Assembly: GCA_046538485.1 (NCBI GenBank)
Contig: JBKHIT010000004.1
Location: 64,001 to 128,000, forward strand
Reading direction: 5' to 3'
DNA from: Candidatus Brocadiia bacterium
GTDB lineage: Bacteria > Planctomycetota > Brocadiia > SM23-32
Length of the DNA: 64,000 nt
Shown: positions 15,001-24,000 of the stretch, piece after piece
Position numbering within the stretch: the first letter of the stretch is position 1
Layout: each line of letters opens with the position of its first letter
Position numbers: made by a program

Positions 15001-18000
15001 ATACTCATCGAAGCTGGCACGCCAAACTATTCGAATCCGAAGATGGCCAGTCATTATGCCTCGGGGGCCGGGCACAATGTGCTTCAGCTGGGTGCTGACG
15101 AACCCGAAACCGCCGAACATAATAGTCTCTGGCAAACACCCCCCGGCTGGCAATCCCGCGACTCCGAAGCCCCGATCCACGTCACGGAGCTGAATCCTGA
15201 GGGAGCCTCTGTCGCGGTGACCGTTGAAAGCGGCTATGACGGGCTGAAACTGTGGGAGCGCCACGTGATATGGGACAACACGAGATTGATTGTGAAGGAC
15301 AACGTCCACTTGCTTGAAAACCGACAAAACATCGTTCTGTTCCGCTGGCACCTGGGCACCGAAACCGATGTTGACATCAAGCATCATTCAGACACACAGG
15401 ATGAGCTGGCATGGCCGGACGCTATCATGGTCCTGGAGGGTTCAGAGCCCCTGGAAGTGGGACAAAAGAAGATGCCGGATCACACGCTTGAATCAGAGGA
15501 TGACCGGCATCTGCATACCTGCATCAGGATCCTTTCAGCTGACCCGACGAATTCACTCAAAGTCAAAACCAAAATCACACTTAGTTGACGTCACCAAACA
15601 GCGAGAGCTTGCCGATGGACTTCCGGGCTCCCGGAGACGGATGGGAAGCGTAAAATCCGAGAGACGCTCTTGGTGCCAACAGGTTTTTTGGCACACCCCA
15701 TGCATCATTGGCCCGCCCCAAGTCCAGTTTCGCCCGCTGGTGGCGGGCTCAGCTGAACTCGAGTCTACATTTCCGGTGAGCGGACTGGACTTTAGAACCG
15801 CTTTCGCGGGGCTGGAGTTCAGAACGCGGGCCGAGCGCAAGCACGTAATGCAGCAGCCCAGAATCACGGGCTTAAATCGCACGAGAACGGGGCTCGGACC
15901 GTCGTTTCCCCCGGCGAGCCCGCCTGATTGACGCTGATATTCTCAGGCCCAAATGCCGAGAATTAATGCCTCCCTTGCAGGTCTGTTGGCTCGACGATAC
16001 CATACGCATCCTTTTCCCATCGATTTTGCGTTGGAGGACCGGGCATGAAGCCCACGCACCTTCGCATTGATGATCACCCTCTGCCGATTGGGATTGATAA
16101 TCCGCAGCCTACCTTTTCATGGCACATTCAATCGCAAGACCGCGATATCACCCAATCGGCCTGCCGGGTTCTGGTCGCCATCGACCCCGATTTGTTGGAG
16201 TTGGAGAAGCCGGACGTATGGGATAGCGACAAATTGAACACGCCCCGTTCGACGTACGTGCGATACGAGGGCCCGCGGCTGCTCGGCCAGAAGATTTTCT
16301 GGTGGAAGGTCCGCATTTGGGACACAGACGGAACAGAGAGCGAGTGGAGCCAGCCAGCGTATTTCGGCACCGGCCCGCAGGAGGATCAATGGCGGGCCGA
16401 CTGGATTGGCGCCGGCCCGGCGACAGAACCCAGATTACTCGGCGACTTTGAGTTTACACAAGAAGGCGATCTCGCGGATAGTGTCGAGGTCAACCTGCGA
16501 AGTCCGCTTTTGCGTCGCGAATTCCCTGCGCACAAGAATGTGCAACGAGCACGCATTTTTGTCTGCGGTCTGGGGTACTATGAACTGCGTCTGAACGGAA
16601 AGAAAGTCGGGGATTCTGTCCTGACCCCTTCCCGCACGCATTACCGGAAAGTTGCCCTATACGACGCTTACGATGTGACCGGCCTGTTGAACGAGGGACA
16701 CAATGCTCTCGGCCTTATGCTCGGCAACGGCTGGTTCAATCCGGCCCGAAAATACTGGGGCTGGCAAATGCAGTGGTACGGGAATCCGCGGGCAATCCTT
16801 CAGGCTTACCTTCGCTACGAAGACGGTTCCGAGGAAACTATTTGCTCGGACCAAAGCTGGAAAACACATCCCGGTCCCATTCTTCGCACCTGTCTCTACG
16901 ATGGTGAACATTACGACGCACGGCTGGAACAGAACGGATGGGATGGATGGGGGACGCACATGTGGCATGTTCCCAGGCCCTGTGCAATTTCAGCGCCATA
17001 CGCTTTTATCGGAAATGGATGCGGGACGTGCGCGAACAGCAGTTGCCCAGCGGAGACATCCCTTACATCTGTCCCCGTCCCACCAGTGACGGCACACCGT
17101 GTTGGTCCAGCGCCGGTGTACTCGTGCCGTGGTATTGCTACGAGGCGTCGGGAGATATTCGATTCCTAAACGAAAATTACGAAATGATGAAAGGGTATCT
17201 GGATTTTCTCTGCGAAACGGCGGACGATTTAATCCTGCCGCGCGACAGATACGGCGATCATTCCACGCCCCATCGTGGCGGATCCTATACCCGCGGCGAC
17301 CCGGAGATGTCGAGCTCCTGGTATCTGCTCTACAACGCCATGCTACTGGCCAGTTCGGCAAATCTACTCGGCTACGAGGAAGATGCAAAACAGTACGAGA
17401 AGCTGGCGGATGATGCACGGGCAGCGATTCACCAGCGTTTTTACAATCCGGGCAAAGAAACCTACGACGATGGTTCACAATGTGCGATGATCATGGCGCT
17501 TTACCTTGATGTCCCGCCTGATAGTGAGATTTATAAGAAGGTCGAAGCCAATTTGCTGAAAAGCATTAATGTGGTATGCCAGGGACGCCTCGGCGTGGGG
17601 ATTCTGGGGACCCGCTATGCAATGGAACTGCTGACGAGGCTCGGCCATCTGAATACAGCCTGGCATCTGGCAACATCAACCGATTACCCTTCCTGGGGTT
17701 ACATGACCAAAGGCCGAACGACGTTGAGCGAACAGTGGAACCAGTATTTCGGATCCAACAATCATGTGATGTTCGGGAGCGTCGATACCTGGTTCTACGA
17801 GACGCTCGCTGGAATCAATGTGGATTTGAGCCAAAACGAAGAAAAGCTCTGGCTGGCACCGTGGTTCGAAGCTGACCTTGAACATTGTCGCGCCGCTCGC
17901 GAAATCCCTCAGGGACGAATTTTGTCGGAGTGGCGCCGAGAGGATGGAGAAATGGAATGGCGGGTCGAACTGCCCCATAATACGCGGGCGACCTTGCGCA

Positions 18001-21000: not shown

Positions 21001-24000
21001 AACCCGCCGGAGGTTATTGCCTCGCCCCCACACACCAGCTTCAGGACAACTCCCCGACAGAAAATGTCGTAGAAATGTACGAAGCAGCGCGGGAATACGG
21101 GCAATACTGAAAAATACAAATTGCCCGTAGGTGTGCCAGGAGGCGCTTGTGTTGTATCAGTCTGCGTCCTTTGATAAAGTATTTGCGTCTGAGCACTTAG
21201 AGCGAGGGAGCACGTGGCCACAGCCAGGTCCTTCGGACTCCACCGGTTTTGAGCGGCCACTCTGGCATGCCGCCTGCTGGGCCAGCGCTCCCAAAGCCAA
21301 ACAGAGCCGGGAACGAAATACAAGGATCCACAACCACCTGATATTATCGGGAGACAAAGTATGAAATTGGAGCACGTCGCCTTGAACGTCGACGATCCCG
21401 TCGCGATGGCAGAATGGTATGAACGCCACCTCGGCATGACGGTGGCAATGGGCATGGATGAGGAACCGTTCACGCATTTCCTGCGCGACAGCAACGGCAC
21501 AATGATGCTGGAAGTTTATAAGAATCCGCCCGACGAAGTGCCGAATTATAGGGATATGGACCCGCTTCTGCTGCATGTCGCGTTTGTTTCCGATGACCCG
21601 GAGACGGACAAAAACAGACTTGTGGAAGCGGGTGCTTGCCTGGTCAAAGACCAGCACCTTGACGACGGATCTCATATCGTACTGTTGCGCGATCCGTGGG
21701 GCCTCTGCATCCAGTTCTGTAAACGCGACACTCCCCTGCTCTCAGACAGCGAATAGAAAGTTTCCTGCTGGCAAATTGTCAAGGCTTCCATATGACTTAT
21801 ATGACTCCAGTTGAGAGCCACCTGCATCGCCTCATAAAGGCGGCATCGGATATTGGCACGGATATGTGGCCGAGTGTGCTGGACGTGCGAACGGGGCGGT
21901 TTCCTGCGCAAGAACACGTGCCGTCCCGGACATATCGATTGATCGGCGCCCCTAATGGTAGCACCCTCTACTGGGACCAACCCCTTGTCGTCGCCGCTAC
22001 CAGATTGTCTCAGATTACCGGCAAATCCAAATACACCGCCGCGGCCGACCGGTATATTGAAGCATTTCTGGCGGAATGTGTGGCGGAAAACGGGATGTTC
22101 CGCTGGGGAAATCATCAGTACTATGATCTGCTTGAGAAGAAAGTCATTGAGTTTTCCGGAGGGCATCACGAAATACGCCCGATCACACCGGCCTGGGATT
22201 TCTTCTGGGAACACGATAGAGAGAAAACGGCTTCATATATCCGGGCCATGGCGCGCCGACACGTCTACGATCGCAAGACCGGTGGTTTCAACCGGCACGA
22301 TGACGGCAACAAAAGCCACGCTTTCCTGGAATCGGGTGGTATTCTGGTAGAATCTCTTGCCTGGCTTTTCAGTCGGACGCAAGACGAAGAGTTCCGCGAT
22401 CTGGCGCTACGGATCGCACTTTACAGTTACAAGCATCGCGATCCGTCAACGGGCCTGGTTGTCAATGAACCGGATACTCAAAGATGGGATTCTGAGGTAT
22501 CGACCACCGAGGTCGGGCTCTGGGCGCGGTGTCTTTTACAAGCAGCTGAATATGCCGAAGACGACGAGTTCGCCGAAATGGCCACCACTGCCACAAAGAG
22601 CTACCTTGAAAACGGGTACGACAGAGGTAAAAACAGATATTTTGGCCAGCTAAAGGTCGATACGGGTGAACCCGTTCTCCCCAATGGAACGGGATACTGG
22701 CCGCGGAAATACTCTGATCCCTGGAACACCGACCAGTGGCCGACGCATGATTACCCGATGCCACTGGCTGAAACATGTCTTATTTTGCACGAGCGGACCG
22801 AGGACGCGATATTCCCGGAAGCCGCGCATCGCTGGGCCCGCATAGTCATCGAGACCTCCCCCGAAAAGACCGGAAAATGGGCCTATGCAGAGAATTACGG
22901 GCGTTCTATTCGCTTTTTGACACGCGCAGCGTTGCAACTCGGCGAAGACCGTTACATGTGTTCGGCCTCAACACTGGCCGACCAGGCTGTCCAAAACCTC
23001 TACGAAAATGGCATGTTCAAAGGTGAACCGAACGGGCATTTCTATGAATCGGTGGACGGCGTGGGTTTTCTTGTTCTTGGGCTAATTCTACTTGAGACGG
23101 GAGGGCAACCCGATGGAATTTGAGCCCGTATCTTACGACCATGCCGCCGGCTTGACCGGGGAACGGCCCGGGGATGTTTCCAGAGACGCAGAGCTCCTGG
23201 CGGCAGCTCACCTGACAGTTTTGGAGAACTATGACTACGACATCGCTGTGGTCGGCTTGTACATTTACAATGTTGAAGCAGAGATATATGGCTGCGAGAT
23301 CAGCGATCCCGGAGGCAACGAAGTCCCGTCCGCCGGCGCCCTGCCCCTGAACGACGTTAGAGATATACTACCCCTGGACCTTGATCCGGCCCCATGAAAC
23401 AGGTAATTTATTTTGCAGCCTTATCGGGAATGAGGACCGATTTTTTAAACCACAAAATATAATTGGTATAGCAGGAGAAATGCGGGCATGAAAAATTACA
23501 GCCAAACAATCCAACCCATACCGCAAACCTGTTGGGTGAGGGGCTTCAATAATCCTGAAAGGGAGGTCAAATGAGCATTACCAGGTTCGAGGATAGTCTT
23601 CTCGGGAAGTTGTTGTACAAACACAAGCTAGGGTGTATGCTGCCATTTTTCCTCTTCCTTTTTGCTATTCTGGCATATTTCGTGTGGAGAAACTGGGACT
23701 CTATTCTCGAATATTTCGGATAGCGCAAGTCCTTGCAATCAGGCTGAAGCAATCCACCAAGCCCGCTCTTCAAAACCCCTTTACAGGAGACCAAAGTGCC
23801 CAAAGCAGGCAGAGCCGCAGACGATGTCCCCCTGATCCCGCGCGAAGTCCTTTTTGGCAACCCCGATCGCACCCAACCCAAGATCAGTCCCGATGGGAAG
23901 TGGCTGGCATGGCTTGCCCCCGATGAAGGAGTCCTGAACGTCTGGCTCGCACCCGCCGATGATCCCGACGCGGCCGAGCCAATCACAGAGGACCGCGACC

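Follow-up and report, generated by a model that had tools for sequence, protein, structure and literature searches.

Scattered UroD/MtaA-like paralogues and a single stand-alone corrinoid protein in a Candidatus Brocadiia bacterium: candidates for methyl transfer from methylated carbohydrates

The genome of a Candidatus Brocadiia bacterium was found to encode at least 41 proteins of the UroD/MtaA superfamily together with one stand-alone corrinoid protein (CP). One member of the family is located in the stretch of 64,000 nucleotides analyzed here (referred to as the window). With slightly better than even confidence we regard the window gene and its 40 to 56 paralogues as cytoplasmic, metal-dependent methyltransferases which share this CP and likely act on methylated carbohydrates, and not as decarboxylases. 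If this is correct, sugar methyl groups may be removed independently of O2 by a set-up which is present in many phyla. A published description of such an arrangement of many enzymes and one CP was not found in the literature.

The span 17184-21110, under which the initial annotation listed the family, comprises four genes, of which only the last one is URO-D-like. This gene (20046..21110, + strand) encodes a TIM-barrel protein of 354 aa which matched PF01208 with 66.4 bits (cut-off 23.9) over profile positions 119-346 only. It is preceded, at a distance of 43 bases, by the gene of an M14-type (cytosolic carboxypeptidase-like) protein of 379 aa (18864..20003, + strand). The latter protein itself gave no match in Pfam and NCBIfam scans; its relatives with 51-64% identity carry PF00246 and are annotated as peptidase M14 or M14-type cytosolic carboxypeptidase. 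An M14-type gene next to orthologues of the URO-D gene was looked for in other genomes and not found. Further upstream, on the same strand, are a GDSL-like esterase (18097..18759; PF13472 33.2 bits, cut-off 32.9) and a GH78 alpha-L-rhamnosidase (16045..18179), which according to its Pfam domains is split into two overlapping frames. The first ORF (16045-17169) contains N-terminal Ig and N domains and the second one (16938-18179) the six-hairpin domain (profile 42-338) and the C domain, 17184-18179 being the C-terminal portion. The contigs of a related strain cease to fit at 16932-16984, and the rhamnosidase is probably broken. The same-strand neighborhood also includes a heparinase II/III-like protein (polysaccharide lyase-like; 14455..15588, +; PF07940 47.7 bits) and, downstream of the URO-D-like gene, a periplasmic pectate-lyase-2-like protein (21792..23123, +; PF06917 75.3 bits). 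An S9 prolyl-oligopeptidase/esterase-fold protein (23796..25763, +; PF00326 141 bits) is the last of this run. For the host, a sugar-degrading bacterium, microbial mat and salt lake are given as habitat.

The window protein is a candidate substrate:corrinoid methyltransferase. As noted in the initial annotation, its sole clear sequence match in the PDB was MtaA (4AY7, E 8e-4). The HxCG of MtaA is kept in this alignment as HSCG at 244-247, the predicted metal site, and His330 stands opposite the Cys that provides the third zinc ligand of MtaA. The top fold match of the AF2 model (pLDDT 95.6) was 4ay7 as well (Foldseek, E 3.5e-14, TM 0.63), with UROD and MetE also among the fold matches. Orthologues with 55-80% identity are spread over many phyla.

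In total, 42 genes of the genome matched PF01208 at E <= 0.001 (best E 4.7e-30), 41 of them above the cut-off, and in a protein-level scan 41 of the 42 passed. They are distributed over 38 loci on 32 contigs. These results are in agreement with the 41 genes at more than 35 loci, none a true HemE, counted before. A profile built from the 37 full-length copies recovered all 42 and 15 further ORFs, 8 of these with E < 1e-10; 41 is therefore a lower bound. Among the 42 matches neither a HemE-like member nor a second Pfam domain was found. None of the matches began before profile position 73, and the first 70-160 positions of the profile were left unmatched in the paralogues. The highest identity between any two copies did not exceed 44%; each paralogue is a distinct, old orthologous group.

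A MAFFT alignment of the 37 full-length copies reproduced the previously described H-x-[C/D/H]-G motif. The first position was His in 29 copies and the third Cys (15), Asp (17), His (4) or Glu (1), followed by Gly in all 37. The third zinc ligand of MtaA had been reported as not conserved, and its position was His in just 10 of the 37. Since in addition the motif His was missing in 8 copies, some paralogues may, as judged from sequence, bind no metal or possess another activity. The best NCBIfam models were MtaA/CmuA or methylcobalamin:CoM methyltransferase in 28 of 32 copies scanned, all scores to the MtaA-type models being far under the cut-offs (29-75 bits vs 235-400). The HemE model TIGR01464 was found for one of the 32 (37.5 bits, cut-off 303).

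As stated initially, there is one stand-alone CP (208 aa; C93:17056-17682); besides MetH, it is the only PF02607 match in the genome. Its motifs DxHxxG, SxL and GG were invariant across 26 orthologues, and among NCBIfam models it was matched best by those of methyltransferase-cognate corrinoid proteins. All four RACo genes of the initial annotation are present. Three of them lie on the contig of the acs cluster, one within the cluster itself, and only the C84 copy (C84:27929-29797) matches the CP-linked activases of other genomes. A pterin-binding protein (C84:129384-130226) passed NF005719, the model for methyl-THF:corrinoid methyltransferase, with 307.7 bits vs 259. It had been named MtrH-type, a designation which does not hold: PF02007 was matched with E 0.0016 only, under the cut-off, and the gene belongs to Pterin_bind. 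A full acs/CODH cluster (C54) was found and, of the Wood-Ljungdahl methyl branch claimed before, MTHFR and FTHFS; CobS, MetH and CFeSP are present as well. Members of the MttB or MtaB families were searched for in the genome and not found, so that neither of these substrate:corrinoid methyltransferase families is available as a competing partner of the CP.

Co-occurrence was analyzed in 40 genomes of many phyla, all of which carry a window-gene orthologue. A small CP was present in all 40, RACo likewise in all 40 compared to 1 of 14 control genomes, and every genome contained 10-124 first-look URO-D candidates. In a sample of 151 genomes of the phylum, with CP orthologues called at E <= 1e-50, a CP orthologue was found in 20 of 22 URO-D-expanded genomes, spread over 15 families, vs 5 of 128 others. 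One CP per expanded genome was the rule. The two remaining expanded genomes, G090 and G116 (91% and 86% complete), gave no match in the PF02607 scan; both carry RACo.

In the genome studied here, no CP, RACo or pterin methyltransferase was found among the 135 scanned neighbors of the paralogues. In other genomes, for example L062 and L126, all four parts (URO-D-like gene, CP, pterin methyltransferase and RACo) are clustered. From 39 other genomes 40 CP loci were obtained: 20 with URO-D-like genes, 16 with RACo, which was closest to the C84 copy every time, 6 with a pterin methyltransferase of the C84 type, and 13 standing alone. As many as four or five distinct URO-D-like genes were present at a single such locus. 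Many of these share less than 35% identity with any copy here, and many subfamilies are therefore linked to CP. CP-adjacent copies include kin of HxC and HxD paralogues alike. CP-adjacent kin with at least 40% identity was found for only five paralogues of our genome: the window gene (62%), C23_39124 (52%), C60_51221 (49%), C111 and C89. Seen from the loci of window-gene orthologues, CP, RACo or pterin methyltransferase adjoined in 7 of 80. The anammox HemE genes that had served as a yardstick for the family directly adjoin CP homologues too, and their products may themselves be methyltransferases.

The CP could be used by few paralogues only, including the window gene, while most would be corrinoid-independent enzymes on sugar derivatives (metal-dependent decarboxylases, isomerases or hydrolase-like enzymes) sharing just the UroD barrel. 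We consider this unlikely. A single CP for 41 or more enzymes would fit, as would the separate location of CP and paralogues here, the mere five with close CP-adjacent kin, the 8 copies lacking the motif His, and a clan that includes cofactor-free UROD and corrinoid-free MetE. However, the size of the expansion tracks the presence of CP over the 15 families, as a rule at one CP per expanded genome, divergent URO-D-like genes accumulate at CP loci, and the best curated models are MtaA-type and not HemE for most copies.

A complex of the window protein with the CP was predicted by co-folding, with an ipSAE of 0.72 vs 0.00 for the best control. This score expresses how confident the model itself is, and solved structures of corrinoid-domain complexes may have contributed to it. 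Of 157 solved complexes in the benchmark, 116 attained this ipSAE mark, compared to 2 of 215 mismatched pairs. At least 81% of the contacts were common to three runs, and the partner pLDDT was at least 84. In the predicted interface, residues 156-166 and 208-218 at the mouth of the barrel, close to Asp205, face the region around the His loop of the CP. Together with co-occurrence, adjacency elsewhere, the phylum sample and the missing MttB/MtaB, this supports the shared CP of the hub-and-spoke network proposed in the initial annotation.

According to the shared-CP proposal, each enzyme would bind one methylated substrate at the His-x-(Cys/Asp/His) metal site in the barrel mouth and use it to methylate the cob(I)amide of the CP. 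The C84 activase would keep the CP reduced, and the pterin-binding methyltransferase would unload it to tetrahydrofolate. For the resulting methyl-THF, this genome would offer either oxidation or use by the acetyl-CoA synthase cluster on C54. The suggested route into acetogenesis thus fits this genome but is not general, since lineages under the labels Puniceicoccaceae, Gemmatimonas and Bacteroidota carry the module as well and the pterin methyltransferase was detected in only 27 of the 40 orthologue-bearing genomes; by the latter count, tetrahydrofolate is not proven as general acceptor.

The substrates, the least certain part, are most likely methylated carbohydrates: O-methyl ethers, or possibly uronic acid methyl esters, which would be set free intracellularly from glycans of algae, plants or microbes. 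As for the O-methylated sugars suggested before, this reading follows from the neighbors, since both here and in other phyla the genes around the paralogues encode sulfatases, glycoside hydrolases, sugar dehydrogenases, kinases and sugar transporters. The neighbor scan covered 40 paralogues (two loci left out). A sulfatase or sugar gene was located within two genes of about 21-22 of them, close to the 21 given earlier, and roughly half had none. Sulfatases were present at 7 loci and GFO/IDH/MocA oxidoreductases at 6, and GH95, GH29, PfkB, FGGY, DeoC and ROK genes were further neighbors; housekeeping genes adjoin many paralogues. Orthologues in other phyla are accompanied by sulfatases, MR_MLE, parts of sugar ABC transporters, GH4, GH29 and AraC regulators. 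A point against sugar ethers is of chemical nature: known O-demethylase substrates release a phenolate, which leaves much more readily than a sugar alkoxide.

There is some chance, though clearly a minor one, that the enzymes depend on the CP and act on other compounds, either methoxylated aromatics, as OdmB, VdmB and MtvB of acetogens, or methyl-S/Se compounds such as dimethylsulfide or methylmercaptopropionate, as MtsA and as proposed for Mlp. The sugar neighborhood would then reflect a genome crowded with such genes, in line with the half of the paralogues that lack them nearby. The HxC copies and the His-Cys-His of the window protein, a soft ligand set, point in the same direction, and the habitat labels would suit methyl-sulfur compounds. 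Moreover, the characterised UroD-superfamily methyltransferases named in the available part of Kountz & Balskus (bioRxiv 10.1101/2023.07.31.551370) all act on aryl methyl ethers, CoM or methyl-S/Se compounds. The same part, however, ties the exchange of Cys for Asp, present in 17 of our 37 copies, to O- and not S-methyl transfer. Furthermore, sugar genes accompany orthologues in unrelated phyla, where sugar ABC transporter operons run directly into URO-D genes; no genes of aromatic catabolism or sulfur metabolism were seen among the 135 neighbors, and forty or more distinct S-methyl donors are hard to name.

Transfer in the reverse direction, with methyl-THF loading the CP and the paralogues methylating acceptors, as MtaA and MetH do, so as to build or modify glycans or metabolites of the cell itself, appears highly improbable. 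Methyl-THF:corrinoid methyltransferases are reversible, MtaA as the nearest solved relative moves the methyl group from corrinoid to thiol, and one paralogue adjoins a GT2 glycosyltransferase. Yet the neighbors are overwhelmingly catabolic (sulfatases, GH95, GH29, GH78, kinases, aldolases), and biosynthetic methylation usually proceeds through SAM-dependent methyltransferases.

Among known systems, HemE has the Pfam family and the fold in common with the paralogues. HemE of the same phylum, however, matched PF01208 with E 1e-100 to 1e-136 over positions 1-346, whereas the best copy here reached its 4.7e-30 over 152-345. The methanogen methylcobamide:CoM methyltransferases MtaA, MtbA and MtsA of the UroD superfamily share the barrel, the HxCG at the zinc site, the best models and the type of partners, a small DxHxxG corrinoid protein and an ATP-dependent activase. 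They differ by an identity of about 18%, scores far under the cut-offs, the profile start left unmatched by our paralogues, a third ligand Cys in place of His or another residue, and the 41 or more copies per genome at carbohydrate loci found here. To our knowledge, CoM is not expected in a bacterial host. A cytochrome P450 of marine Bacteroidetes reportedly demethylates 6-O-methyl-D-galactose during use of algal glycans, needing O2 and releasing formaldehyde. If our proposal holds, the removal of a sugar O-methyl group would be common to both; the P450 fold is unrelated, and the present system would work without O2 and keep the methyl group on folate.

The four-component O-demethylases of acetogens and Desulfitobacterium consist of a UroD-family methyltransferase I (OdmB, VdmB, MtvB, to which our proteins are likened by description), a CP, a methyl-THF-forming methyltransferase II and an activating enzyme, and all four parts are present in our genome. 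As far as is known, every operon of this kind encodes a CP of its own, whereas the single CP, the matching activase and the single pterin methyltransferase of our genome are located apart from dozens of scattered methyltransferases, in a context of glycan breakdown and not of aromatic compounds. The carboxylate replacing Cys in 17 of 37 copies agrees with what is stated for O-methyltransferases in the available part of the preprint (bioRxiv 10.1101/2023.07.31.551370). In the type 1 mlp clusters described there, bacterial UroD-superfamily homologues of CoM-methyltransferases are accompanied by a CP and a Ram/RACE activase; these clusters have spread across phyla by transfer and often lack the tetrahydrofolate methyltransferase. 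Planctomycetes, Lentisphaerae, Chloroflexi, sugars and polysaccharides are not mentioned in that part of the text. Mlp proteins are assigned to three fixed lineages with His-Cys-Cys sites, occur in obligate anaerobes only (73% Firmicutes) and are linked to methyl-S/Se metabolism (bioRxiv 10.1101/2023.07.31.551370). As far as this account of Mlp extends, both systems combine UroD-superfamily enzymes with CP and activase in many phyla, often without the pterin methyltransferase, whereas ours comprises tens of lineages with mixed Cys/Asp/His sites, across many phyla and at sugar loci.

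The span 17184–21110 lies within a run of genes on the same strand, and its sole member of the URO-D family is the ORF at 20046–21110 (+), encoding the 354-aa protein here referred to as the window protein. It matched PF01208 with 66.4 bits (gathering cut-off 23.9), at profile positions 119–346 only, and no match to the HemE model TIGR01464 was found at E ≤ 0.1. The genome as a whole gave 42 matches to PF01208 (best E 4.7e-30). The 41 genes above the cut-off reported in the initial annotation were confirmed, since 41 of the 42 copies also passed at the protein level; a second Pfam domain was present in none. 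A family profile built from 37 full-length copies and searched against the genome added 15 ORFs missed by PF01208, of which 8 have E < 1e-10 and none lies in the window (examples are C73:26421–27578, C132:32089–33231 and C42:3383–4528, by contig). The number of 41 copies is therefore a lower bound. The paralogues are distributed over 38 loci on 32 contigs. Pairwise identity never exceeds 44% and has a median of 25% among alignable pairs; judged from these sequences, the set is old and diversified rather than a recent burst.

The earlier view that none of the copies is a true HemE was upheld. The best copy reached 37.5 bits with TIGR01464 (cut-off 303), and this was the one occasion among 32 scanned copies on which the HemE model was among the best NCBIfam models. 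Alignment of all copies to PF01208 was confined to profile positions 73–346 or less; HemE of other Planctomycetota aligns across the whole profile with E 1e-100 to 1e-136. For 28 of the 32 scanned copies the best models were MtaA/CmuA-type methyltransferases, all far under the cut-offs. The window protein scored 47.8 and 42 bits with TIGR01463 and NF040654 (cut-offs 235.4 and 400), and the remaining copies scored 29–75 bits, again under the curated cut-offs. At E ≤ 1e-5, a first search with the window protein already returned 5018 relatives, and the protein Atlas held URO-D-named clusters only. In four of five same-class genomes sampled (G072, G102, G127 and G152) two full-length PF01208 matches (E 1e-78 to 1e-87) were located directly beside a homologue (E about 1e-46) of the stand-alone corrinoid protein described below, for example at G072:C1:3398782–3403769. 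The anammox "HemE" proteins to which the copies were previously compared may instead be MtaA-like methyltransferases.

The same strand of the run carries, in this order, a heparinase II/III-like protein (14455–15588), a GH78 rhamnosidase in two overlapping frames (16045–17169 and 16938–18179), a GDSL esterase (18097–18759), a 379-aa protein related to proteins named M14-type carboxypeptidases (18864–20003), the URO-D-like gene, a pectate-lyase-2-like protein (21792–23123) and an S9 hydrolase (23796–25763). Inspection by eye revealed no apparent signal peptide in the window protein. At the GH78 frames, contigs of a related strain (runs X3 and X5) cease to fit at 16932–16984, and a run X2 contig, which stems from the study that also yielded the likely source, spans 16535–16980 without change. 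A genuine indel or rearrangement in this population seems to underlie the split, and the GH78 gene at 16045–18179 is probably broken.

The product of 18864–20003 is a member of a widely distributed M14-type carboxypeptidase-like group, its relatives sharing 51–64% identity. Its only paralogue in the genome is weak (E 3e-4) and located at C107:3163–3783, beside the URO-D paralogue C107:1097–2290. As a conserved partner the M14-like neighbour was rejected, being found neither in 80 loci of window-gene orthologues nor in 40 corrinoid protein loci of other genomes. A protein with DUF6785 and DUF6784 is encoded at 3105–5084, and another on contig C57 (L151:2086–4284), where it immediately precedes the URO-D paralogue that diverges most. 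The ORF 5296–6375, downstream of the DUF6785 protein in the window, was considered as a hidden URO-D-like gene and dismissed, as it had no similarity to URO-D. The region 47730–58539 encodes a MoxR-type AAA ATPase, a 1411-aa TPR/PQQ-repeat protein, a DUF58 protein and BatA/VWA proteins and looks like an ordinary Bat-like aerotolerance-type cluster.

MAFFT alignment of 37 copies showed a motif of His (29 copies), any residue, Cys (15), Asp (17), His (4) or Glu (1), and Gly (37 of 37), which reproduced the initial H-x-[C/D/H]-G counts within one or two. We take the zinc ligands of MtaA to be the His-x-Cys and a C-terminal Cys. HSCG of the window protein was aligned with HICG of MtaA (4AY7) and the later Cys of MtaA with His330, which is conserved at 90% or more in an alignment of 50 rows; the corresponding position is His in 10 of the 37 paralogues. 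The structure model of the window protein (pLDDT 95.6, pTM 0.92) matched MtaA 4ay7 best (E 3.5e-14, TM 0.63), with UROD structures ranking next and MetE after them. According to a recent preprint, S-methyltransferases of the UroD family have His-Cys-Cys sites and O-methyltransferases have carboxylates or non-ligands in place of Cys (Kountz & Balskus, bioRxiv 10.1101/2023.07.31.551370). By their motif, the Asp-type copies fit the O-methyltransferase pattern described there.

PF02607 was found in the genome only in MetH and in one stand-alone corrinoid protein (CP), so that the single such protein of the initial annotation was confirmed. CP comprises 208 aa with the domains PF02607 and PF02310 and is encoded at C93:17056–17682 between recO and a TPR gene. 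Its motifs DxHxxG, SxL and GG are invariant among 26 orthologues, and among curated models it matches methyltransferase-cognate corrinoid proteins best (TIGR02370, 196.5 bits, just below the cut-off of 215.3). The four activators of the RamQ/RACo type were likewise recovered as four genes for the reductive activase RACo: one within the acs/CODH cluster on contig C54, two elsewhere on C54, and one on C84 (C84:27929–29797) surrounded by housekeeping genes. The third C54 copy (C54:42686–45382; L084:2686–5382) has a DUF1638 protein and a ferredoxin as neighbours and is set apart from the acs operon. The proposed MtrH-type methyltransferase did not hold, as this gene (C84:129384–130226) remained under the cut-off of PF02007 (E 0.0016); its 280-aa pterin-binding product instead passes NF005719, methyl-THF:corrinoid methyltransferase. 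MTHFR, FTHFS and CobS are present. No match to the MttB and MtaB families was found in the genome, which is 88% complete, so that the URO-D-like proteins alone remain as candidate substrate:corrinoid methyltransferases to partner the orphan CP.

The genes within two genes of the paralogues were scanned at 36 of the 38 loci (the URO-D gene was uncalled in two), and none of these 135 neighbours was a CP, RACo or pterin gene. The only B12-domain protein among them was a divergent B12-binding radical SAM protein on contig C26 (480 aa, L143:2904–4346), which adjoins the short URO-D paralogue C26:34407–35105.

Orthologues of the window protein with 55–80% identity were present in records labelled Lentisphaeria, Anaerolineae, Latescibacterota, Poribacteria, Armatimonadia, Bacteroidota, Puniceicoccaceae, Gemmatimonas, Kiritimatiellia, Omnitrophota and others. 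Forty genomes carrying such an orthologue were picked for comparison. A small-frame PF02607 match was present in all 40 (in G034 cut by the contig end), as were 10–124 URO-D first-look candidates per genome, which are not to be equated with copy numbers. RACo was likewise found in 40 of 40 genomes compared with 1 of 14 control genomes. Forty CP loci were fetched from 39 of the genomes, all with a CP similar to that encoded on C93 (E 1e-28 to 1e-86). Within about 7 kb of CP, URO-D-like genes were found in 20 of the 40 loci, where by our own estimate roughly 5 would be expected by chance (~46 candidates per 5 Mb). RACo was present in 16 loci, with the C84 copy as best match every time, and a C84-type pterin protein in 6. 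In total, 27 of the 40 loci contained at least one of these partners and 13 contained none. Near the window-gene orthologue itself a CP, RACo or pterin protein was found in 7 of 80 loci. The locus L062 carries a pterin protein, RACo and CP, followed by a divergent orthologue and two more URO-D-like genes. The CP-adjacent copies of other genomes include relatives of both Cys-type and Asp-type paralogues of this genome. The densest array seen comprised eight URO-D-like genes in 15 kb around a window-gene orthologue in an Anaerolineaceae record (L048:1223–16274).

A second sample consisted of 151 evenly drawn genomes of the phylum; these are related to each other and not independent, and counts are given without a p value. 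At least 10 candidates were found in 22 genomes besides this one, across 15 families. A CP orthologue (E ≤ 1e-50) was present in 20 of these 22 expanded genomes compared with 5 of the 128 others, and in the expanded genomes it was usually the sole small CP. In the two exceptional expanded genomes no PF02607 match was found, MetH included; RACo was present in both. Up to 13 candidates were scored in each of the 22 expanded genomes, and orthologues of the window gene (≥ 57% identity) turned up in only 9 of them. A role as universal exit enzyme was rejected on this basis; the window gene looks like one spoke, as would fit a substrate-specific enzyme, not the exit of the hub formed by CP.

Co-folding of the window protein with CP gave an ipSAE of 0.72 (best control 0.00), a mark that 116 of 157 solved complexes attained, as did 2 of 215 mismatched pairs. 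At least 81% of contacts were common to the runs, and the pLDDT of the partner was at least 84. On the window protein the predicted interface takes in residues 156–166 and 208–218, located at the mouth of the barrel and adjacent to the invariant Asp205; on CP it takes in residues 55–67, 103 and 106 around the His loop. We know of no solved complex of MtaA with a corrinoid protein. As other corrinoid-domain complexes have been solved, the pass may partly reflect likeness to these, and the contact is a prediction of the model.

In this genome the neighbour scan found sulfatases at 7 loci and GFO/IDH/MocA oxidoreductases at 6. Further neighbours were GH95, GH29, DUF2961, GxGYxYP, PfkB, FGGY, DeoC, ROK, glucosamine-6-phosphate isomerase and sugar-type regulators. 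About 21–22 of 40 paralogues had a sulfatase or sugar-type gene within two genes, in agreement with the 21 of 41 counted initially; many others are located beside housekeeping genes. Orthologues in other phyla are repeatedly flanked by sulfatases, MR_MLE dehydratases, parts of sugar ABC transporters, GFO oxidoreductases, GH4, GH29 and AraC regulators, so the link to sugar catabolism extends beyond this genome. Antisense ORFs overlying the URO-D gene, which also clustered as a conserved neighbour, were discarded as an artefact of longest-ORF gene calls.

Taken together, the expansion of the family beside one CP stands as first observed, and the proposal of a hub-and-spoke network gains substantial comparative support for its shared CP, to which the docking prediction is added. 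Its link to acetogenesis fits the acs cluster of this genome but cannot be general, given the lineages that carry orthologues, some of which are presumably aerobic. Similarly, exit of the methyl group to tetrahydrofolate is plausible here and not general, since the C84-type pterin protein (E ≤ 1e-20) was found in only 27 of the 40 orthologue genomes. Demethylation of sugars by the paralogues is an attractive but unproven reading, in which methyl transfer, its direction and the substrates are all inferred.

Methylated sugars such as 6-O-methyl-galactose, 2-O-methyl-fucose, 2-O-methyl-xylose and 4-O-methyl-glucuronate are common in algal, plant and microbial glycans. The sole sugar demethylase we know of is an O2-dependent P450, and our literature search found nothing on how anaerobes handle sugar methyl groups. 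We tentatively suggest, as a possibility that falls somewhat short of probable, an undescribed and widespread O2-free demethylation of carbohydrates in glycan degraders of Planctomycetota, Lentisphaerota, Kiritimatiellia, Chloroflexota, Latescibacterota, Armatimonadota, Poribacteria and Bacteroidota, among other phyla. Dozens of UroD-type methyltransferases, each tuned to one methylated sugar, would load a single shared CP; one RACo-type activase would keep CP active, and unloading to tetrahydrofolate would conserve the methyl carbon, which in this genome would feed acetyl-CoA synthesis.

If true, thousands of entries named 'uroporphyrinogen decarboxylase' would be sugar demethylases, and a very large mis-annotated family (5018 relatives; 10–124 candidates per genome in 40 genomes) would be explained. 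Glycan breakdown in sediments and mats would be linked through methyl carbon to C1 or acetyl-CoA metabolism. The proposal names concrete enzymes and a testable minimal system of one methyltransferase, one CP and one activase, and URO-D-like enzymes might be of use as oxygen-free demethylation catalysts.

Our literature search found nothing linking URO-D-like or corrinoid proteins to sulfatase-rich glycan degraders or methylated sugars. At listing level, papers on Kiritimatiellales, Pontiella and fucoidan-degrading Planctomycetota make no mention of uroporphyrinogen decarboxylase. The nearest work found is that of Kountz & Balskus (bioRxiv 10.1101/2023.07.31.551370); in a term search of its text, Planctomyc-, Lentisphaer-, Chloroflex-, sugar and polysaccharide were absent. 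The type 1 mlp clusters described there occur mostly in Firmicutes and are tied to methyl-S/Se metabolism. Their Mlp2 and Mlp3 members have His-Cys-Cys sites and are clustered with CP and Ram/RACE, whereas here there is no clustering and the window protein has His-Cys-His. One carrier for tens of enzymes would be an unusual layout among corrinoid methyltransferases. Corrinoid-dependent methyltransferase systems have a cognate small CP with DxHxxG, SxL and GG and an ATP-dependent activase of the RACo/RamA type, both of which are present here too. The parts of those systems are encoded together, whereas here they are scattered, although CP is accompanied by at least one partner in 27 of the 40 CP loci of other genomes.
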